Assembly: GCA_900552555.1 (NCBI GenBank)
Contig: URZW01000002.1
Span: forward strand, 13,760 to 77,759
Direction: 5' to 3'
DNA from: an uncultured Clostridium sp.
GTDB lineage: Bacteria > Bacillota > Clostridia > TANB77 > CAG-508
Length of the DNA stretch: 64,000 nucleotides
Made by a program: the position numbers and the translations under genes. Shown piece by piece: positions 4,203 through 51,312 of this stretch. How positions within the stretch are numbered: position 1 is the first letter of the stretch; every line of letters starts with the position of its first letter. Below the pieces are notes generated by a model, which ran no database searches, had not been told where the DNA came from, and saw nothing but the letters and a program-made list of their open reading frames with translations.

Positions 4203-4442
4203 TTAAAAATCCTCCTTCATTTGTCTGGAGGTTTTACCCTCCAACATTTTATAATTTTCGGGTAACAAAATTTATAATTAAAATTATAACATATTTTATA
4301 TGAGTTTTACAAGTTATTATACTGTGAATTGTAAAAAACCTACATAAAAAATTAAATAAAAAAAGAAAAAAACTTGTATATTCCCAAAATTTATGATATA
4401 AATACTAGTATAAGAAGAAAGCTACAGAAAGGCGGAATTTTT

Positions 4443-9176: not shown

Positions 9177-9270
9177 TCTTTTGTTAAAAATTATAATATT
9201 ATTTTATATTAAACATATTTAAAAATCAATAAATTTCTTAAAATTTAAAGAAAATCAGTTATTATATAGT

Positions 9271-9738
9271 TACAATTCACATTTTTTACAAAAATTTGTG
9301 TGTAAGTTGCTTCCTTAAGGGTTATATATATTTGGTATTGTATCCGCTTGAATGAAGTAAAAAATAGAAAATTTTAAATAAAAAAATGAGGAATGCTCAC
9401 GGAAAAAATGTATATGTATATGGTTTGATAATTTTCTCGGTTCAATACGCAACATAAGAATTTCTAAAATAAATTAATGGCACCCTTCCACTTAGTCCTC
9501 ACTTCGTTCGACGTGAACCCTTTCCATTAATTTATTTAAGAAATTCTAATATTGCTCCAATCACATTCGAAAATGATAAAACCATATACATATACATTTT
9601 TAGCCTGAGTGAGAGAGGCTCAGTTTTTTATTTTAGATTTTCTTTTTGAACGTAATGAACAGGATACAATACCAAATATATATAACCCTTAAGGAAGCAA
9701 CTTACACATCAATTTTTGAAAAAATGTGAATTATAAAA
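9271..9738. repeat. composite palindromic intergenic element, copy 1 (about 75-bp outer inverted repeats around a 2-fold-symmetric core)
   Basis: Positions 9273-9345 are the reverse complement of 9662-9736. The core recurs at 41150-41520 and 34775-34985. Confidence 0.85.
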
Positions 9739-16956: not shown

Positions 16957-17060
16957 TAATTTTTAAATAAAAAGTATACTTTATAACAAGTATGCTTTTT
17001 TGGTTAGTTACCGTATAATAGTTACAATTCACGGCCTTAGAAATTGTTTTCAAAAATAAG

Positions 17061-28104: not shown

Positions 28105-29590
28105 AATAAAAGATGTACTTTCATCAGTAAAAGTAAAATTATTTATAACACTAAGCACAACAGTACTGTTAATAATATTATTTTTAATAATAGTAAACAA
28201 TTTTGCATTAGAAAAATTTTATTTATATAAAAAGCAAAACACATTAAAATCCGTATATGAATCAATAAATAATTATTACAAAACACCAGAGCAAAACAAT
28301 GACATACAAACAGAATTAGAAAAACTATCAATAAAAAACAATTTCGATATTCTAATTAAAGACAATAATGGAATAAATTTATATACGACAAATAAAAACT
28401 TTTCAACAGTAATAGGAAGCATAAATGATATTTTAGACAAAATAAGTGAGGGAAAAGTATTAGAAGCAAATGATAATTTTACAGTAAAAAAACAAAGGGA
28501 TTCTAAAAATGGATTATCATATATGATGCTATCTGGAAAACTAGAAAATGGATATTTTTTATATATTCGTATACCATTAAACTCAATACAAGACAGTGTT
28601 AGTATATCAAACAACTTCTTATTAATGATGGCAGGTTTCACAATATTAATAGCATCAATAATGGTAACAATAGTATCAAGAAAATTTACAGAACCAATAC
28701 TTGAACTAAACAATATAGCAAAAAAAATGTCAAATTTGGACTTTAGCCAAAAATATCAAGTAACAAACGCAAGAGATGAAATAAATGATTTGGGAAGAAG
28801 CATAAATACCATGTCAGACAAGCTAGAAAGGACAATAAAACAATTAAGAAGTAGCAACATAGAACTAGAAAGAGACATAGAAGAAAAATCAAAAATAGAT
28901 GAAATGAGGAAGACATTTATATCAGATGTATCACATGAATTAAAAACACCAATAGCTCTTATACAAGGTTATAGCGAGGGATTGTTGGAAAATGTAAATA
29001 GTGATGAAGAAAGTAGAAAATTTTATGCAGAAGTCATTTTAGATGAAACAAATAAAATGGATAAGTTAGTAAAACAATTACTAGAATTGATGAAACTTGA
29101 GTATGGAAAAAGAGAATTTCATAATAAAGAGTTTAATATTGTAGAACTTGAAAAAGAAGTAATAAGAAAAACAAATGTTATGATAGAAGAGAAACAGGCA
29201 GAAATAAAATTTGATGATAGTCAAGAAATACAAGTATTTGCAGATGATTTTTATATTGAACAGGTTTTAACAAATTATTTAACAAATGCTATAAAAAATG
29301 TAAAAGAAATGTACGGAGAAAAATATATAAAAATTTCAAATGAAATTCTAGAAGAAGAAAATAAAGTTTGTATTAAAGTATTTAATACAGGAGAAAAAAT
29401 ATCAGAAGAAAATTTAAATAGAATTTGGAATAGGTTCTATAAAGCAGATGAGTCTAGACATAGAGAAGATGGTGGAACAGGAATAGGTCTTGCTTTTGTA
29501 AAGGCTATTATGGGAAATTATGATAATAAATATGGAGTAAAGAATCTAGAAAATGGAGTAGAATTTTATTTTGAATTAGATATGAAATAA
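28076..29590 (+). CDS. sensor histidine kinase (TM-HAMP-HisKA-HATPase); non-ATG start, overlaps the response-regulator gene
   Basis: H-box SHELKTPIALIQGY, N-box/G-boxes (GTGIGLAFVKAI). The first ATG in frame lies after the TM helix, so a GTG/TTG start is required. Confidence 0.8.
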   Translation: MWDINLKLNKIKDVLSSVKVKLFITLSTTVLLIILFLIIVNNFALEKFYLYKKQNTLKSVYESINNYYKTPEQNNDIQTELEKLSIKNNFDILIKDNNGINLYTTNKNFSTVIGSINDILDKISEGKVLEANDNFTVKKQRDSKNGLSYMMLSGKLENGYFLYIRIPLNSIQDSVSISNNFLLMMAGFTILIASIMVTIVSRKFTEPILELNNIAKKMSNLDFSQKYQVTNARDEINDLGRSINTMSDKLERTIKQLRSSNIELERDIEEKSKIDEMRKTFISDVSHELKTPIALIQGYSEGLLENVNSDEESRKFYAEVILDETNKMDKLVKQLLELMKLEYGKREFHNKEFNIVELEKEVIRKTNVMIEEKQAEIKFDDSQEIQVFADDFYIEQVLTNYLTNAIKNVKEMYGEKYIKISNEILEEENKVCIKVFNTGEKISEENLNRIWNRFYKADESRHREDGGTGIGLAFVKAIMGNYDNKYGVKNLENGVEFYFELDMK

Positions 29591-29619
29591 GTGGGACAGG
29601 CCTAGTTTGTCTCACTTTT
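29591..29619 (+). terminator. Rho-independent terminator gtgggacagg...tgtctcac + T4
   Basis: Hairpin directly after the stop codon. Confidence 0.6.
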
Positions 29620-29836
29620 AATTTGTGACATTTAACATTATATTTCCTTAAATTGTAACAGAAATGTCACTTTTTGTCGAAAATTGCGATGAAAAGTTCT
29701 TTACAAATACAAAAAAATGTAGTATTATAATTATAGTTTTAATCAAACAACACGAAAGTGTTTTTTAAATCTAAAAATTTTTTCGAAAAAATTATTCCAA
29801 AAAAGAAAATCAAAAGGTGGGTGAAACATATGAATT

Positions 29837-30442
29837 ATGATGTACACTAAAAGATATGTTAATATTGTGAGTCTTATAATAACAATAATAATATTTATAT
29901 CTACAAATCAAATGAAAAACTTTAAAATAAATATAAACTCTATCTCAAATATATTTAAAAGAAATTCTGTATTAGTAGAATTAAGTTCAAACAATATTGA
30001 TCAAGAAACAAAAGAAGATACACCCCTAATTGAAAATCAAAACAATAATATAACTGAAGAAAAAACTACAAATTGGAAATTAATGATTCCTAAAATATCA
30101 TTAGAAGCAGAGGTATCTGAAGGCACAAGAAAAGAAGTAATGGATAAATTTGTTGGACATTTTGAAGAAACAACAAAAACAAGTGGTAATGTAGGGCTTG
30201 CGGCACATAATAGAGGATATCCTGTTAATTATTTTTCAAATATAAAACAATTAAAAGAAGGAGATGAAATAATTTATAAATATTATGAATTTGAAAAGAC
30301 ATATTTAGTAGTTGAAAACAAGATAATAAAAGATACAGATTGGGAACCATTAAAAGGCACAAAAGAAAACAAAATAACATTAATTACCTGTGTAGAAAAT
30401 GAACCAGAATACAGAAGATGTATACAAGCTGTAGAAAAATGA
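29837..30442 (+). CDS. sortase (class A-like)
   Basis: N-terminal TM, AAHNRGY (catalytic His), TLITC, downstream Arg (YRR). Confidence 0.8.
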   Translation: MMYTKRYVNIVSLIITIIIFISTNQMKNFKININSISNIFKRNSVLVELSSNNIDQETKEDTPLIENQNNNITEEKTTNWKLMIPKISLEAEVSEGTRKEVMDKFVGHFEETTKTSGNVGLAAHNRGYPVNYFSNIKQLKEGDEIIYKYYEFEKTYLVVENKIIKDTDWEPLKGTKENKITLITCVENEPEYRRCIQAVEK

Positions 30443-33883: not shown

Positions 33884-34756
33884 ATGAAATTAAAAATGAA
33901 ATTGGGATTGGCATTATCTGGAGGGGGAATAAGAGGAATAGCACATGCAGGAGTATTAAAAGCATTAGAAGAAAATAATATAAAAATAGATGCAATAGGA
34001 GGTACAAGTTCAGGTAGTATAATAGCAACACTATATGCTATGGGATATTCACCATATTATATTTACATATTGTTCAAAAAATATGCAAAAGACTTAGTAA
34101 ATCAAAATGCAATATCAAAAGTCACAAACATAGGAAACTTCATGGCAAATAAAAAAACAAATTTTCAAGGATTTTATTCTGGAGAAGAAATAGAAGAATG
34201 TTTTAATAATATAGCATCACGAAAAGGAATAAAGACAATATCAGATATAAAAATGCCAATTGTAATTCCAACAGTAGATGTTCAAAATTCAAAAAAGTAT
34301 ATAATTACAAATAATATACCAGAAAAGATTTGTACAAATACAGAATATATAAATAATATAGAAATTGGGAAAGCAATTAGAGCAAGCTGCAGTTTTCCAG
34401 TAGTTTTTAGTCCATGTGAGTATAATGAACATAAATTTTTGGATGGTGGAATATTAGATAATTTTCCAACAATTGAAGTAAGACATCAAGGTGCTGATAA
34501 AATGTTAACGGTTAATTTTAAGGCAGATGATATTGAAGAGAGTAGCAATATTATGGATATTGTTATGAGAACTATTGATATTATGGGAAATAAGATATCA
34601 GAAGAAAATATAAGTAATAGTGATATGGTTTTGACTATTCAAACCGATAAAACGGGTTTGTTGGAAACTGAAAAATTGGATGCTTGTTATAAATATGGAT
34701 ACAGGCAAACTATAAATCAAATTGATAAAATTAAAGATATGATAAATGATAATTAA
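33884..34756 (+). CDS. patatin-like phospholipase (second paralog)
   Basis: SGGGIRG, GTSSGS (GxSxG), DGG. Confidence 0.8.
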   Translation: MKLKMKLGLALSGGGIRGIAHAGVLKALEENNIKIDAIGGTSSGSIIATLYAMGYSPYYIYILFKKYAKDLVNQNAISKVTNIGNFMANKKTNFQGFYSGEEIEECFNNIASRKGIKTISDIKMPIVIPTVDVQNSKKYIITNNIPEKICTNTEYINNIEIGKAIRASCSFPVVFSPCEYNEHKFLDGGILDNFPTIEVRHQGADKMLTVNFKADDIEESSNIMDIVMRTIDIMGNKISEENISNSDMVLTIQTDKTGLLETEKLDACYKYGYRQTINQIDKIKDMINDN

Positions 34757-34774
34757 TATTAATATAATTAATGA

Positions 34775-34985
34775 TATGTACTGTTGATACTATATATGTT
34801 TTTATAATTTACTCGGTTCAATACACAATATAAGAATTTCTAAAATAAATTTATGGCACCCTTCCACTTAGTCCTCACTTCGTTAGACGTGAACTCTTTC
34901 CATAAATTTATTTAAAAAATTCTAATATTGCTTCAATCACATTCGTAAATTATAAAAACATATATAGTATCAACAGTATTCATAA
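34775..34985. repeat. palindromic element copy 2 (truncated core bounded by 28-30 bp inverted repeats)
   Basis: ctgttgatactatatatgtttttataat / attataaaaacatatatagtatcaacag flank a core about 90% identical to 9436-9580. Confidence 0.8.
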
Positions 34986-35077
34986 TTAATAATTAGTAAT
35001 ATTAAATTCCGGAAGTATCAAATGTAATAAATTTGAATATAATATACAAAATTATTATACAGAAAAGAGGAAAAGTT

Positions 35078-39694: not shown

Positions 39695-39730
39695 AAAAAA
39701 ATAGCACATACAAAATGTGCTATTTAAAAA
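39695..39730. terminator. bidirectional terminator tagcacat/atgtgcta flanked by A- and T-runs
   Basis: Between convergent spoIIID and veg. Confidence 0.55.
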
Positions 39731-39736
39731 TACTAA

Positions 39737-40039
39737 TTATAATAAAACTTCAGCTTTCTTTCTTTTTGTTTCAACCGGTGGTGGAATTAAAGGACTATAA
39801 GCCTCTCCATCATAAACATCAACTTCAACAGTTCTAGTTAAAACATCAGTATAACTGTAAGTTACATTTCTATTATTTTCTTCATATCTAACAACAAAAA
39901 TATTAGGATATGCTTTTTCTATTGTTGCTTCTTTTGCAAATGTTCTACTTCTACCAAGAGAACCCTTTACTATTATCTTTTGACCCACTTTCTCCAAGAT
40001 GTCAGTTTTTAGATTTGATATATCTGTTTTACAAATCAT
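39737..40039 (-). CDS. veg: Veg protein (DUF1021)
   Basis: GSLGRSRTFAKEATIEKAYPNIFVVRYEE...YSYTDVLTRTVEV matches Veg. Confidence 0.8.
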   Translation of the reverse strand: MICKTDISNLKTDILEKVGQKIIVKGSLGRSRTFAKEATIEKAYPNIFVVRYEENNRNVTYSYTDVLTRTVEVDVYDGEAYSPLIPPPVETKRKKAEVLL

Positions 40040-40068
40040 GCTATCACCTACTCCCTTAAGATAGCTTG

Positions 40069-40097
40069 ATTATAGCATTTATTACGAAAATTGTCAA
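40069..40097 (-). promoter_or_regulatory. perfect consensus sigmaA promoter TTGACA-N17-TATAAT driving veg
   Basis: Minus strand reads ttgacaattttcgtaataaatgctataat, about 30 nt upstream of the veg ATG. Confidence 0.7.
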
Positions 40098-40110
40098 AAA
40101 AACTTTGTTT

Positions 40111-40140
40111 GCACAAAAGGTCTATTTTTATTGATATATC
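40111..40140. promoter_or_regulatory. perfect 30-bp AT-rich palindrome CTATTTTTATTGATATATCAATAAAAATAG (candidate operator or weak terminator)
   Basis: Exact dyad symmetry between the Pveg -35 region and the yabG 3' end. Confidence 0.5.
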
Positions 40141-40191
40141 AATAAAAATAGGAAATAAATCATATAATATTACATTTAGATTACATTTATG

Positions 40192-41034
40192 TTACATAAT
40201 TGTCATTCGGCCATTAGACCCAATGCCACCAATGCCTTTTTTACCATCTCGTATTTCTCTAGTCACATCATCAACAGTTATAAACTTATATCTTTCAGTA
40301 GTAGCAACTTTTTCAGCAATTATAAGAGGATCCAAAAAATCGATTAAGATTCGAGCGGGTGAGGATGCAAAATTTGCACCAGCCATCATAATAGCTTCAA
40401 AATAACTTTGGCAAGCACCAGCAAAAATTACAGTTTCTCTATTATTATCTTTGTCATATTTTCTTGCTTCTTTAACTGTATTTATAAAATGTCTAGAATT
40501 TCTATAATTATAAACATCATTTAAATTAGCCCCCCTTTTTATCATACCATCATGTCCAGTTATTATCAAAATATCTGGTTGATAGATTTTAAGTAATTTA
40601 TATACAACGCGAGGCTGTTTATATTCAGGAATATTTTTTACAATTGCATTTAATCCCATTTTTTTATAATAATTGTAGGATTTTTGTGAGTATCTTTTAT
40701 CACCATCTAGGTGTAAAATTTTTCCGGTTATAATTTTTTGTCTTAATTGTTGATTATCTTCTAAAAAATTAAATCTATATTCTTTTATTTTTTTATCAAT
40801 TCTTGTATTTAATTTATTTTCTTTATTTTTTGTAATGTCTTTTAATTGAATATCGTCCAATAATTCCAAGTCATCTAGGTTGCTGTCTGCTTCAATTCTT
40901 TCATACAAACCACATAATATAGCAATAGATTTAGAAGAGGTTTTTATTATTCTTTTTACATAGAATATAATGTCTTTTCCATAAGATTTTCTAGCTACTA
41001 TATCTCCTTTTTTTATCTTTTTCACATTAATCAC
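40192..41034 (-). CDS. yabG: sporulation-associated protease YabG (peptidase U57)
   Basis: IITGHDGMIKRG and IFAGACQSYFEAIMMAGANFASSP blocks. Confidence 0.8.
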   Translation of the reverse strand: MINVKKIKKGDIVARKSYGKDIIFYVKRIIKTSSKSIAILCGLYERIEADSNLDDLELLDDIQLKDITKNKENKLNTRIDKKIKEYRFNFLEDNQQLRQKIITGKILHLDGDKRYSQKSYNYYKKMGLNAIVKNIPEYKQPRVVYKLLKIYQPDILIITGHDGMIKRGANLNDVYNYRNSRHFINTVKEARKYDKDNNRETVIFAGACQSYFEAIMMAGANFASSPARILIDFLDPLIIAEKVATTERYKFITVDDVTREIRDGKKGIGGIGSNGRMTIM

Positions 41035-41149
41035 CTCATAAATTTGGGCTAGTATATTTTATGTCGAAAAATGTGGAATTGTTACAATTTGTTGAATTCA
41101 AAAGAATATTGCATTATAATAGTTTGATTGCTAAGTATTGGAAGTTGCT

Positions 41150-41520
41150 ATATTCCTATGGAGACATCTTTTTTGTAAGTATGTATTGTTCATTACGTTC
41201 AAAAAGAAAATCTAATATAAAAAAATAAGACTCTCTCACTCAGGCAAAAAATATATATGTATATGGTTTTAGAATTTTTGAATGTGATTGAAGCAATATT
41301 AAAATTTCTTAAATAAATTAATGGAAAGAGTTCACTTTAGTGGAAGGGTGCCATTAATTTATTTTAGAAATTATTATGTTGCGTATTGAACCGAAAAAAT
41401 TATAAAACCATATACATATATATTTTTTCCGTGAGCATTCCTCATTTTTTTATATAATATTTTCTATTTTTCACTTCAATCAAACATACATACTTACAAA
41501 AAAGATGTCTCCCTATGAAT
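41150..41520. repeat. palindromic element copy 3 (inverted orientation, full core, different flanking inverted repeats)
   Basis: Core reverse complement is about 90% identical to 9348-9640. Flanks: cctatggagacatcttttttgtaagtatgtat / atacatacttacaaaaaagatgtctccctatg. Confidence 0.85.
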
Positions 41521-41645
41521 ACAAAACTTTCAACACTTAATAAATCCAAATACCACAAAATTACTTGCAAAATCTGTAAAATGTTATATAATATATACAC
41601 ACAGGCAAAATAGAAAACAAAACCTGAAGAAAGGGATGCAATAAA

Positions 41646-42329
41646 TTGGAAAAAAAGAACTTAGAAGAACTAGAAAAAAATATAGGATATAAATTTAAAA
41701 AAATAGAATTATTACAAAATGCACTAACACACACATCATATGCATATGAACACGGAATACAAAGCAACGAAAAACTAGAATTTTTAGGAGACAGCATACT
41801 AGAATTTGTATCAAGTGAATATATGTACAATAAATATTTAAATTTAAAAGAAGGACAATTAACAAAAGTAAGAGCAACAGTAGTATGTGAAAAAAGTTTG
41901 TACAAAATAGCAACAGCACACAACTTTGGAAAATTTTTATATTTAGGAAAATCAGAAATAAAATCAGGTGGAAATAAAAGACCTGCAATATTAGCTGATA
42001 GTGTAGAAGCAGTTATTGCAGCAATTTTTATAGATGGTGGACTAGAACCTGCAAAAAAATTCATCATAGAAAACCTAAAAAATGAAATAGAAGTTGCAAC
42101 AAAACATGTAGGAGAAAAAGATTATAAAACTGTATTGCAAGAAGAATTGCAAAAAAATGGAGATGTAAAAATAGAATATACAATAATAAAAGAATCAGGA
42201 CCAGACCACAACAAATCATTTGAAGCAGAGGTTGCCTTAAATGGAAAAATTTTAGCAACAGGAAAGGGAAAAAGCAAAAAAGAAGCAGAGATGCAGGCTG
42301 CCAAAAAAGCATTAGAAAACAAAAACTAA
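41646..42329 (+). CDS. rnc: ribonuclease III
   Basis: RNase III signature ERLEFLGDSILE; C-terminal dsRBD. Confidence 0.9.
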   Translation: MEKKNLEELEKNIGYKFKKIELLQNALTHTSYAYEHGIQSNEKLEFLGDSILEFVSSEYMYNKYLNLKEGQLTKVRATVVCEKSLYKIATAHNFGKFLYLGKSEIKSGGNKRPAILADSVEAVIAAIFIDGGLEPAKKFIIENLKNEIEVATKHVGEKDYKTVLQEELQKNGDVKIEYTIIKESGPDHNKSFEAEVALNGKILATGKGKSKKEAEMQAAKKALENKN

Positions 42330-46340: not shown

Positions 46341-46445
46341 TTAATTCACCTCCACATTAATCTTAAGGTAAGTGTAACACAAGCAGATAAAAAAAACAAT
46401 AATTTTTTTAAATATTATATGAAACTTATCTTTTTAGTTACAATT

Positions 46446-46508
46446 CAGTAATGATAATGCATGAAATATCATACACAGGTATTTCATACATTATCATTAT
46501 TGAACTGC
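46446..46508. repeat. long imperfect palindrome (cagtaatgataatgcatgaaata ... tatttcatacattatcattattgaactg)
   Basis: Intergenic; preceded by the 13-mer TAGTTACAATTCA. Confidence 0.7.
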
Positions 46509-46630
46509 AACTTTTCAGATACAAAAATAAATTAATTTTCGATATAAAATAGATTTTGTAGATGTTTATATGTTATAATAATAAAAGAAATTTAATAAAA
46601 ATAAAATCATATAAAAAGGTTGAGATTAGT

Positions 46631-51102: not shown

Positions 51103-51137
51103 TTACAATTATAAAATTAAAAATATTAAGACATTTT

Positions 51138-51269
51138 ATAATATATTGTTTTTTTATACCTTGGTGTCGCAATCTCCATATCTAAAATACTAGTATGAAG
51201 ATTGCTCCAGTTCGCACTCACATTCGTTCGTTTGGTCGCTTACGCGGTATTTCAAAAACAATATATTAT
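51138..51269. repeat. palindromic element (16-bp perfect inverted repeats ataatatattgttttt / aaaaacaatatattat around about 98 bp)
   Basis: The interior (ctcacattcgttcg) resembles the loop of the 9.3-kb element (ctcacttcgttcg). Confidence 0.65.
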
Positions 51270-51312
51270 AAAAAGTTATAAAAATTTTTAATATGTAAAA
51301 GGAGAAAATATT

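Follow-up and report, generated by a model that had tools for sequence, protein, structure and literature searches.

Identification of the element

The segment at approximately 41081-41563 of the window (the whole stretch of 64,000 nucleotides of uncultured Clostridium DNA analysed here) is most probably an inverted copy, old and in part decayed, of a non-autonomous DNA transposon (MITE), belonging to a family of approximately 460-490 bp in which nearly the entire length forms one imperfect palindrome. MITEs are defined by terminal inverted repeats (TIRs), flanking direct repeats, the lack of a transposase and long stem-loops (PMC3184786). The assignment was made because the family possesses TIRs and exact 8-bp duplications, is non-coding, occupies only intergenic positions in either orientation and is variably present among relatives. 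The family is apparently undescribed so far; full-text literature searches for the TIR sequence and for MITEs of Clostridia yielded nothing relevant.

Exactly three core-bearing copies were identified in the window by nhmmer, with cores at 9403-9595, 34788-34966 and 41250-41427. Copy 1 (9269..9737, plus strand) is a full-length member of 469 bp with TIRs GTTACAATTCACAT and ATGTGAATTATAAA. The HMM of the family outer arms recognises both of its outer arms (E 1.8e-12 and 5.8e-9), which are shared with the non-orthologous loci L007, L035, L078, L084, L096 and L110. Copy 2 (34763..34996, plus strand) is a short version of approximately 234 bp comprised of the core and its own outer arms, and its flanks had no match elsewhere. 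The sequence TAATATTAA was read on both sides of copy 2 (34754-34762 and 34997-35005); this direct repeat is AT-rich and not exactly abutting, and is therefore only a possible target-site duplication. A hairpin of 75 bp at 46437..46511, with the same kind of TIRs (GTTACAATTCAG... and ...TGAACTGCAAC), lacks the core and represents a TIR-only mini member of the family in which 26 of 30 terminal bases are complementary.

Structure of the copy between yabG and rnc

Copy 3 lies between the divergent yabG and rnc promoters, both of which are at or beyond the ends of the element. The reverse complement of 41172-41500 was 88-90% identical to copy 1 (9331-9676), in agreement with the inverted copy proposed in the initial annotation. 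The conserved inner element of approximately 300 nt (41187..41486, minus strand, inverted with respect to copies 1 and 2) exhibited 93% identity to copy 1 when the loop was excluded and 82-89% identity to copies of other genomes, and when it was compared with 14 other copies the similarity always stopped sharply 135/138 nt from the apex. At the corresponding position, L056 has an element in the same orientation with approximately 90% identity. Nested within the inner element is the core module (41250..41427, minus strand), common to all subfamilies and the portion also present in copy 2, which was detected using the family core profile (nhmmer, E 3e-33). The apex, located by pattern match at 41321..41354 on the minus strand, consists of ATGG, an 8x8 internal loop (CACCCTTC opposite AACTCTTT), CAC, the loop TAAA, GTG and CCAT; the internal loops were unpaired in the structure prediction. 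Each arm carries an AGAAWTTCT box with one substitution relative to the consensus, reading AAAATTTCT at 41301..41309 and AGAAATTAT at 41366..41374 on the plus strand. The shortening of the central loop described earlier was also borne out, TAAA in copy 3 corresponding to the 21-nt TTAGTCCTCACTTCGTTCGAC in copies 1 and 2, a loop 17 nt shorter than that of copy 1. Across the family the loop is a hypervariable spot with approximately 40 variants of 3-21 nt, in line with the earlier observation that the indel is confined to it, and the behaviour of the hairpin tip as an indel hot spot explains the 17-nt difference.

For several features originally described as shared between the copies, a function could not be confirmed. 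The mini-ORF of 23 codons (41374..41445, minus strand) has no Shine-Dalgarno sequence and was judged not to be a gene; its ATG is missing, with CTGAGG instead, in 10 of 17 close relatives, and its length ranges from 12 to 23 amino acids. A small protein or type I toxin was ruled out by the non-conserved start codon. Promoter-like hexamers occurred at chance frequency (8 observed against 7.3 expected). The terminator hairpin is present in copy 1 and disrupted in copy 3, and no terminator-like sites were found in 40950-41750. Rfam yielded no match at the gathering threshold for the whole window and, for 41000-41700 at E up to 10, only a chance plastid match; a tRNA scan of the window yielded none.

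RNA folding of 41120-41552 predicted one hairpin of approximately 430 nt on both strands, with dG values of -157 and -150 kcal/mol and z scores of -17.6 and -17.2, and none of 100 shuffled sequences was as stable. The corresponding z score for DNA folding of copy 3 was -13.3. The left outer arm (41120..41186) comprises a near-perfect part at 41151-41186 (cctatggagacatcttttttgtaagtatgtat) and a decayed part at 41120-41150, and the right outer arm (41487..41552) has a near-perfect part at 41487-41521 (atacatacttacaaaaaagatgtctccctatg) with the remainder decayed. The flanks 41151-41186 and 41486-41521 form an inverted repeat of 35-36 nt at 94%, beyond which the complementarity weakens to 70%, extending to 41120/41552 (70% over 111 nt).

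These flanks had been presented as a third pair of inverted repeats specific to this locus. Their sequence is indeed unique to copy 3, and no second occurrence was found elsewhere in the window or among 127 related loci. An HMM built from 28 outer arms detected copy 1 and gave no hit to copy 3 at E up to 10, and homology of the flanks to the family outer arms was not demonstrable by pairwise local alignment against shuffles (p 0.28-0.47). The part of the claim that makes them a separate feature did not hold: in both position and length the flanks coincide exactly with the outer arms of the full-length element, which evolve fast, and therefore do not constitute an independent third feature. They would instead represent diverged outer arms, to judge from their position, their length and the behaviour of other copies.

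The candidate left TIR of copy 3 is GTTACAATTTGTTG (41081..41094, plus strand; GTTACAATTTG at 41081), with four mismatches to the family TIR GTTACAATTCACAG. A stretch of 13 nt is an exact match to the terminus of L063 plus its flank. The candidate lies 106 nt outside the inner element, compared with approximately 95-100 nt in other full-length copies. Copy 3 measures approximately 470-483 bp in total, equal to the full length of the family. The candidate TIR overlaps the AC (-35) of a sigmaK-like yabG promoter (AC-N17-CATAAAATA, minus strand), and is considered tentative because the element-free relative L121 also has GTAAC at the same promoter position. No right TIR or target-site duplication was recognisable for copy 3. 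On the other side, the rnc promoter TTGCAA-16-TATAAT (41565..41592, plus strand) is outside the element and marks its right-hand limit. It is kept in L056 and L124, where the site is filled, in L120, which has a remnant only, and in L121 and L127, where it is empty. The adjacency of element and rnc looks incidental, with no detectable link of copy 3 to the RNase III gene, since the rnc promoter lies outside the element and is conserved in element-free relatives.

Distribution, termini and target sites of the family

A search with the apex pattern yielded at least 119 exact matches, all in uncultured Clostridia; by our own count, approximately 40 different assembly accession prefixes (species-level MAGs) were represented among the 80 loci listed. 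These gut Clostridia MAGs derive from humans and rabbits, from one goat and from a mouse collection. No match was found in viral contigs, phages or plasmids searched with the element or the apex pattern. A metagenome scan for TIR pairs 425-455 nt apart, in a collection poor in this lineage, yielded the single match L128; this sole element retrieved by its TIRs alone contains the core with one substitution.

The element has a G+C content of 27% and arms of 230 nt. Full-length members measure 459-486 bp between TIRs and have GTTACAATTCACAG-type termini at both ends, and a subfamily of approximately 250 bp has GTTACTATTTAATG-type termini. At 75-490 bp the elements are non-coding, the 23-codon ORF being their only ORF. 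Every copy is intergenic, and the orientation relative to neighbouring genes is mixed (51 co-oriented, 33 anti-oriented).

Exact direct repeats of 8 bp abut the termini in at least 10 copies overall. They were found in L117 (ACAAAACC), L112 (TTGAAAAT), L110 (CAAAATAA), L096 (TATATTTT) and L058 (AAAATATA), and the same 8-bp duplications occur in the 250-bp subfamily in L032, L092, L070 and L108. The duplication of L056 is listed as ACTAAACG; the abutting repeat is GACGTTTA when read against GTTAC termini. An exact 8-mer repeat at the ends of the palindrome was present in 11 of 111 copies, where 2.85 were expected and 200 permutations gave at most 8; eight of the 11 repeats are in exact abutting geometry. 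The duplication of L110 overlaps a stop codon; in the relative L041 the target, CAAAATAG, occurs only once. Empty sites in L121-123 and L127 measure 17-120 nt compared with the 455-nt palindrome in L124, and neither arm is present. Presence and absence at orthologous sites was also evident between the window and L073, L014 and L083; in these loci the element directly follows a stop codon, and the window has an ordinary terminator there.

Copies group by genome rather than by locus: copies 1 and 3 of the window are 93% identical and L056, L074 and L079 are 95-96% identical, whereas L056 and window copy 3 are 89% identical in this comparison. L056 carries a young copy with an intact duplication in the same position as the older window copy 3, and therefore either a site preference or a replacement event is required.

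Maintenance of arm complementarity

In an alignment of the core from 106 copies, 29 of 38 predicted pairs exhibited double (compensatory) changes. The initial annotation had regarded the loop-confined indel as the pattern expected under selection for a long hairpin. Pairing is indeed maintained family-wide, but the changes are almost exclusively Watson-Crick exchanges without strand-specific wobble, and the copies lie in both orientations; these features speak against an RNA hairpin under selection. Summed over the 38 pairs, the covariation table contained approximately 676 double-sided cells versus 46 one-sided cells of the G-U type, and transition mismatches were unbiased by strand (218 G.T versus 213 A.C). 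The outer arms had a mean identity of 89% within a copy and 74% between copies; in a group whose inner parts are 95-98% identical, the outer-arm identity between copies was 81%. The outer arms of 14 full-length copies were mutually alignable and have a common architecture. The pattern fits a DNA palindrome held symmetric by arm-to-arm template switching or gene conversion in a transposable element.

Intermediates of such a process were evident at one locus where the strains L124, L125 and L126 have flanks 99.5-100% identical. L124 and L125 differ by an exact inversion of the inner 309 nt. The mirror positions 47/423 are C/G in L124, A/T in L125 and A/G in L126, and L126 has a deletion of approximately 170 nt between direct repeats TTTAGAATTT. 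L124 carries the apex variant CAT...ATG, in which the 3-bp stem is retained. These elements are also located upstream of rnc, where their orientation flips between strains. Template switching is known to cause homogenisation of inverted-repeat arms and inversion of the spacer (PMC8604942), and mutations of this kind are associated with quasipalindromes in E. coli (PMC7202029). The paired mirror SNP and the exactly inverted centre that distinguish L124 from L125 correspond to the two outcomes described (PMC8604942, PMC7202029). The described arms are, however, approximately 5-20 bp with spacers of a few bp, compared with arms of 50-230 nt and an inverted segment of 309 nt here; RecA-dependent recombination between the arms is therefore an equally possible route.

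In the model that is favoured, the elements would have been moved in trans by a transposase binding the family ends and making 8-bp staggered cuts in the target. After insertion, template switching within or between molecules, together with gene conversion between the arms, would preserve their complementarity at the DNA level, a process described more widely for inverted repeats. The outermost 70-100 nt of both arms, presumably otherwise unconstrained, would drift rapidly and in an old copy take on the look of a locus-specific inverted repeat, while the inner 300 nt would remain similar to other copies in the same genome.

Alternative interpretations

The MITE interpretation has points against it. 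No TIR pair with a duplication surrounding an ORF was found in approximately 1 Mb of related loci, and searches of these loci for an autonomous partner (TIR pairs spaced 150-4000 bp and with an 8-bp duplication, or pairs under relaxed TIR criteria to 5 kb) yielded only MITE-sized units. Copy 3 itself lacks a recognisable target-site duplication and right TIR, its candidate left TIR falls on a promoter position also reading GTAAC in an element-free relative, its outer arms are not statistically similar to those of the family, and a young copy with an intact duplication occupies its position in L056. It is hardly probable at all that the segment is instead a long structured RNA with its hairpin under selection, such as a substrate of RNase III or a leader controlling rnc or yabG. 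The very stable hairpins predicted on both strands, the compensatory changes and the location upstream of rnc in the window, L056 and L124-126 would suit such an RNA, and the transcribed Correia elements of Neisseria are known RNase III targets (PMC2649163). Against this, G.T and A.C mismatches are near equal, one-sided changes are rare, both orientations occur and are flipped between strains upstream of rnc, promoter-like sites are at chance level and the terminator is absent from copy 3. Furthermore, the rnc promoter is outside the element and retained where the element is missing, more than 100 copies reside in unrelated gene contexts and there is no Rfam family. It is very unlikely that the flanking repeats are foreign to the element, arising by nested insertion into the centre of a pre-existing local palindrome or of another palindromic element, or by snap-back synthesis copying one flank in inverted form. 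Homology between copies does stop at sharp nested boundaries (64/65, 135/138 and approximately 160 nt), the flanks of copies 3 and 2 are unmatched elsewhere, the 12 nt beyond the TIRs of L007, L013 and L025 are mutually reverse-complementary, and L002, L004 and L118 have inverted copies of another hairpin on both sides. Intact duplications nevertheless abut the outermost ends of the palindrome, and the inserted unit is therefore the whole palindrome, outer arms included; in addition, empty sites contain neither arm, the outer arms of full-length copies share their architecture, and copy 3 has the full length of the family. A retron, attC site, REP, protelomerase site and single-strand origin were set aside given the TIRs, 8-bp duplications and many chromosomal copies; the conservation of the centre rather than of ends or tags and the lack of an adjacent reverse transcriptase or integrase also disfavour them.

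A purely selfish element poorly explains the near-identical apex and AGAAWTTCT boxes in genomes where genes are only 66-82% identical and the arms of the same copies diverge. A further interpretation, itself unlikely, is that a central module of approximately 125-300 nt, comprising the apex with its two 8-nt internal loops, the boxes and an asymmetric segment (CTCGG / CACATTCG), is functional and selected, the transposon being a mere vehicle. The module might form a cruciform or hairpin to which a protein binds, act between genes as an insulator or terminator, or work as RNA. An identical apex occurs in approximately 127 copies from about 40 species-level genomes, an invariance that is partly ascertainment because the exact apex was the search criterion. 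The boxes, which were absent from the search pattern, are more than 90% conserved in 106 copies, the stems between them covary and the arms further out diverge. In copy 3 the duplication is gone and the outermost arms have decayed to 70%, yet the inner 300 nt are still 93% identical to copy 1. The element found by TIRs alone keeps the core, and in L073, L014 and L083 the element takes the place of the ordinary terminator of the window. Conversely, clustering by genome is explicable by recent spread or conversion between copies without host-level selection, near-identical strains carry the centre in opposite orientations and others have lost it, core-free members with TIRs only exist, and neither an orientation rule, strand-specific wobble nor an Rfam match was found. 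In a specific form that is decidedly unlikely, the apex module would be bound by a protein of the host or the element or, if transcribed, by ribosomes or a CsrA-type regulator; as RNA, its single-stranded internal loops read CU-rich and anti-SD-like CCCUUCC/CUCUUUCC on one strand and GA-rich and SD- or GGA-like GGAAGGG/GGAAAGAG on the other, and two palindromic AGAAWTTCT boxes frame them. Purifying selection would then act on each resident copy, and the outer arms, although diverging rapidly, would be strictly self-complementary because a DNA hairpin or cruciform has to be extruded. If true, selection on the module would explain its near-invariance across approximately 40 species despite the turnover of the arms.

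Significance of the family

As a MITE family, these elements constitute a visible share of the intergenic DNA in small, AT-rich, uncultured gut Clostridia, with three core copies and several relics in 64 kb. They account for long hairpins that might otherwise be taken for RNA genes or regulators, in this case beside rnc, and mark hot spots of inversion and deletion able to break MAG assemblies. They also provide an unusually clear natural case of inverted-repeat arms in concerted evolution, with mismatch, conversion, flip and deletion caught in near-identical strains.

Comparison with known elements

Bacterial MITEs, among which the Correia (CREE, nemis) elements of Neisseria are the best studied, are likewise short, non-coding, multi-copy and intergenic, with TIRs around a conserved core and target duplications; they form long stem-loops and lie adjacent to promoters, to which they may contribute hexamers (PMC3184786, PMC2649163). 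A possible parallel to the last property is the candidate TIR end GTAAC at the expected -35 AC of the yabG promoter. The likeness concerns how the element works and not its membership. Correia elements measure 104-157 bp, are palindromic only at their 26-bp TIRs, generate a TA duplication and are confined to Neisseria, whereas the present family measures approximately 250 and 460-490 bp, is palindromic throughout, generates an 8-bp duplication, has clostridial hosts and is more conserved at its centre than at its ends. Among Firmicutes, bcr1 and other bcr repeats of the Bacillus cereus group are interspersed, with short direct repeats, variable strain distribution and compensatory changes preserving a cruciform-like fold (PMC3184786). 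In contrast to the single continuous hairpin described here, bcr1 is approximately 155 bp with 5-bp direct repeats and two independent stem-loops, and is documented as transcribed; it shares no sequence similarity with the present family.

REPINs are doublets of REP sequences. Both are mobilised by RAYT transposases and offer a further parallel, as intergenic hairpin repeats that are largely inherited vertically, co-evolve within a genome and retain complementary arms. REPs are G+C-rich palindromes of 20-40 nt with a GTAG/CGTC tag (PMC3733652); no such tag was seen at the ends of the present family. REPs have no target-site duplication and no comparable TIRs, whereas the present element is AT-rich, approximately ten times longer and flanked by 8-bp duplications. 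Eukaryotic foldback (FB) elements have arms made up of tandem subrepeats, show no sequence relationship to the present family, presumably depend on an unrelated enzyme, and are comparable by analogy only: they too consist almost entirely of two long inverted arms and are prone to inversion and deletion.

The inverted copy between yabG and rnc

The feature in the 611-nt spacer between yabG (40192-41034, minus strand; TIGR02855, E 1e-77, 261 bits, just below the curated cut-off of 270) and rnc (41646-42329, plus strand; TIGR02191, E 1e-74) is a real element, an old copy of a MITE family. The window is AT-rich (G+C 24-32%), with clostridial genes throughout its gene content. The reverse complement of 41172-41500 was 88-90% identical to 9331-9676 in copy 1 (9269-9737, plus strand), and the sole gap in this alignment, of 17 nt, was restricted to the hairpin tip. 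Segments 41151-41186 and 41486-41521 are reverse complements (94%) and neither the rest of the window nor any of 127 related loci contains this repeat; fainter symmetry reaches 41120/41552. A single hairpin of ~430 nt was predicted for both strands (z approximately -17 as RNA and -13 as DNA). With the match, the tip gap, the flank repeat and the fold all recovered, the initial annotation, which had reported an inverted full-length copy with a shortened apical loop, described the locus correctly. A core profile search found exactly three core copies in the window. Elsewhere, ORF 58236-58793 contains six to seven tandem 42-nt (14-codon) repeats at 58249-58542, encoding a K/E/G/Q-rich repeat protein.

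Distribution and hairpin anatomy

A search with the exact apex pattern (ATGGCACCCTTCCAC, 1-31 nt, GTGAACYCTTTCCAT), which covers the hairpin tip with its loop and internal loops, yielded at least 119 matching stretches. Host genomes of the matches listed were all uncultured Clostridia or 'Clostridium sp.', with sources, judged by isolate name, that included human (Hadza, Nepal), rabbit ('Lapin'), goat colon and mouse gut (MGBC prefix); ~40 distinct assembly accession prefixes were present among 80 loci listed. No match was obtained in the viral contigs, phages and plasmids searched, no Rfam family matched the element and a literature search for the family returned no relevant paper. The family appears to be undescribed so far. 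Every copy is intergenic and, between co-directional genes, the pattern strand is sense in 51 copies and opposite in 33.

Alignment of 106 distinct copies defined the layout. At the tip, a 3-bp stem (CAC/GTG) lies beneath a hypervariable loop of 3-21 nt, with ~40 variants, several of them mini-hairpins. An 8x8 internal loop, with one and the same CU-rich sequence type on both sides (CACCCTTC, AACYCTTT), is followed by ATGG/CCAT, a stem of ~11 bp whose variable sequence shows compensatory changes, and an almost invariant AGAAWTTCT box in each arm. Beyond the boxes is a second asymmetric segment (CTCGG... on one side, ...CACATTCG on the other) and, outermost, arms of widely differing length, the palindrome arm measuring 21-251 nt per copy. 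Homology between copies ends abruptly at nested boundaries, 64/65 nt from the apex in copy 2 (34763-34996, plus strand), 135/138 nt in copy 3 (the yabG-rnc copy, ~41081-41563) and ~160 nt, up to 213/207 nt, in copy 1. The mini-ORF of 23 codons was ruled out as a coding gene, its ATG having been lost in 10 of 17 close relatives. A long intergenic palindrome at 51109-51298 (arms of 45 nt, 80% complementary; centre of 100 nt) has a centre, GATTGCTCCAGTTCGCACTCACATTCGTTCG, resembling the TTGCTCCAATCACATTCG segment of the core and the 21-nt loop; it may be remotely related or represent a separate family.

Termini, target duplications and empty sites

The outer arms of 14 long copies were mutually alignable and share the order flank, GTTACAATTCACAG, variable stretch, ...GGTTATATATATTTGATATTGTATCC, inner element, with 459-486 bp between termini. 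Exact 8-bp direct repeats adjoin these termini at six loci in other genomes (ACAAAACC in L117, TTGAAAAT in L112, CAAAATAA in L110, TATATTTT in L096, AAAATATA in L058 and GACGTTTA in L056). Exact 8-bp repeats also abut the ends in a ~250-bp subfamily with GTTACTATTTAATG-type ends (L032, L092, L070), and an abutting 8-bp repeat likewise in L108, of similar length with different ends. An unbiased test found exact 8-mer repeats at the ends of the palindrome in 11 of 111 copies, exactly abutting in 8 of the 11, against a mean of 2.85 and a maximum of 8 copies over 200 permutations of flank pairs. In L110 the duplication and the stop codon of the gene upstream overlap; in the relative L041, the same gene end carries CAAAATAG once. 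In L124, from the yabG/veg-rnc region of another genome, a 455-nt palindrome separates the veg terminator from the rnc promoter, a position occupied in L127 and L121 by 17 nt or slightly more without either arm. The elements have no coding capacity. MITEs are defined by terminal inverted repeats (TIRs), target duplication of fixed length, lack of transposase, many dispersed copies and empty sites (PMC3184786); as TIRs, an 8-bp duplication, dispersed copies and empty sites were all found and a transposase was not, the family is classed, on these sequence features, as a MITE. The one element of the picture still missing is an autonomous partner, which was not found in ~1 Mb of sequence from related loci.

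Several other structures were observed. A 75-bp hairpin at 46437-46511, in the spacer preceding the gene at 46562, has the family TIRs (AGTTACAATTCAGTAATGATAATG... / ...CATTATCATTATTGAACTGCAACT) without a core and is a TIR-only mini element. Solo matches to GTTACAATTCACAG with 1-3 mismatches (17021-17034, plus strand; 4322-4335, minus strand; 29646, 31774, 58062 and 61824) fall almost only in intergenic spacers, their total of 12 being at chance level (9 expected); sequence after 17021 resembles the L110 subterminal sequence (GTTACAATTCACGGCCTTAGAAATTG), and these matches are probably relics of decayed copies. In L084, a copy at 910-1343 adjoins the 3' end of a tRNA-Arg(CCT) gene (831-906), with tRNA sequence in place of the outer arm and TIR on that side. 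Short-subfamily copies in L004 (7000-7500), L118 (3400-3950) and L002 (1400-1900) lie between inverted copies of another hairpin (GGGCAATTTGGGGTCGGTTCCATTTTTGCCC in L004 and L118; terminator-like CTGTCAAAAAG...CTTTTTGACAG in L002), so that the palindrome runs past the element. Three different subfamily members, in either orientation, directly follow the stop codon of the same gene with no separate terminator (L073, 1515-1710; L014, 3290-3500; L083, 6510-6720). At this position the window (29590-29700) has an ordinary terminator, GTGGGACA...TGTCTCAC-TTTT, and a short inverted repeat, GTGACATTT...AAATGTCAC. The motif TTGTCGAAAATTGCGATGAAAAGTTCTTTACAAAT (29665-29705) is conserved upstream of the gene at 29837 in these four genomes, and a similar motif, ATGTCGAAAAATG, lies upstream of yabG (41061-41075); the two may represent a shared operator or promoter-proximal motif.

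Outer arms and history of the yabG-rnc copy

Flanks of copy 1 matched the family outer-arm profile (E 1.8e-12 and 5.8e-9), reappear at non-orthologous loci of other genomes and are not locus-specific. The flanks of copy 3 (41120-41186/41487-41552), initially annotated as a third, unrelated pair, did not match that profile and resembled other outer arms no more closely than shuffled sequence did, so 'unrelated' holds at the level of detectable similarity. Among six copies sharing 95-98% identity over the inner 300 nt, outer arms were only 71-88% identical between copies; within-copy arm identity in the 14 long copies was 80-96.5% (mean 89%), and substitutions distinguishing a copy occur on both of its arms. 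The outer arms are thus the part of the element that evolves fastest, and within a copy they do so in concert. Copy 3 looks old: its perfect stretch is short, its outermost arms have decayed and it lacks a target duplication. It spans ~470-483 bp, the full length of the family, and has GTTACAATTTG 106 nt outside its inner boundary; by position and length rather than by demonstrated homology, its flanks would thus be outer arms that have diverged in an old copy of full length.

The related locus L056, ~82% identical to the window over 4.1 kb, carries an element in the same place and orientation whose inner part is ~90% identical to that of copy 3. Its outer arms are wholly different and 95-96% self-complementary (~82-94 nt aligned), and its GACGTTTA duplication is intact. 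Since it is closer to copies in its own genome (95-96%) than to copy 3 (89%), it represents either a more recent insertion at this site or a copy converted in place. In L120, which encodes the closest Rnc (93% identity), the spacer contains just one 170-nt segment whose ends resemble TIRs, together with a short piece reminiscent of the inner element, judged by eye, and nhmmer found no core there. Sites are empty in L121-123 and L127.

To the right of the element is the rnc promoter (TTGCAA-16-TATAAT, 41565-41592), which L056, L120, L121-123 and L127 all conserve, whether or not they have an element. No functional tie to rnc was found, and the element would not be its regulator. The GTAAC terminus occupies the AC position of a candidate sigmaK-type yabG promoter (AC-N17-CATAAAATA); AC is also present in the L056 pre-insertion sequence and in element-free L121, and its retention could explain why insertions here were tolerated. 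Gene order is spoIIID+, veg-, yabG-, rnc+ in the window, L056 and L120, and spoIIID+, yabG+, veg+, rnc+ in L121-L127; the veg-yabG segment (39737-41034 in the window) is inverted in the first group. One junction of the inversion is where the element sits, and the terminator hairpin of veg, ATAGCACAT...ATGTGCTAT (39702-39726), moved along with the segment. In L120 (1383-2217), yabG is split into two ORFs (117 and 133 aa) and hence frameshifted or interrupted, which may reflect an assembly error or a pseudogene.

Arm symmetry and conservation of the centre

Across 38 predicted pairs, ~676 sequence-by-pair cells had changed on both sides versus ~46 on one side (G-U type), which indicates that pairing between the arms is maintained. 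G.T and A.C mismatches were equally frequent in all arm alignments (218 versus 213), so there is no preferential wobble tolerance on either strand and maintenance is DNA-like. L124, L125 and L126 encode an identical Rnc protein and have flanks 99.5-100% identical. Relative to L124, L125 shows a precise inversion of the inner 309 nt, and mirror positions 47/423 of the outer arms are C/G in L124, A/T in L125 and A/G in L126. One arm and the apex of L126 are deleted between direct repeats (TTTAGAATTT). These loci catch arm homogenisation and inversion in progress. Template switching between inverted-repeat arms, with homogenised arms and inverted spacers as known products (PMC8604942) and quasipalindrome mutagenesis documented in E. 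coli (PMC7202029), could have homogenised the arms and flipped the centre; recombination of one long arm with the other would do likewise, and the data fit both routes alike. By either route, conserved arms with an indel only at the tip, initially read as the mark of selection for a long hairpin, are not by themselves such a sign. The pairing stands; the data give no preference to an RNA hairpin under selection.

The apex does not vary among ~127 copies; genes of the genomes that carry them share 66-82% identity with those of the window. This invariance is partly ascertainment, because the apex was the search key. Not so explained are the conserved AGAAWTTCT boxes, absent from the search pattern, the apex in all three unselected window copies, and the sole TIR-selected metagenome match, whose apex has one substitution. 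The centre might be required in cis for mobilisation, or be homogenised by gene conversion between copies, which cluster by genome; a selected function of the module itself is unlikely. The interest of the family lies in a foldback architecture that takes in its whole length, in the concerted evolution of its arms, which was observed directly, and in the unexplained invariance of its apex. Conservation is much higher in its centre than at its ends, whereas MITEs usually show the opposite.
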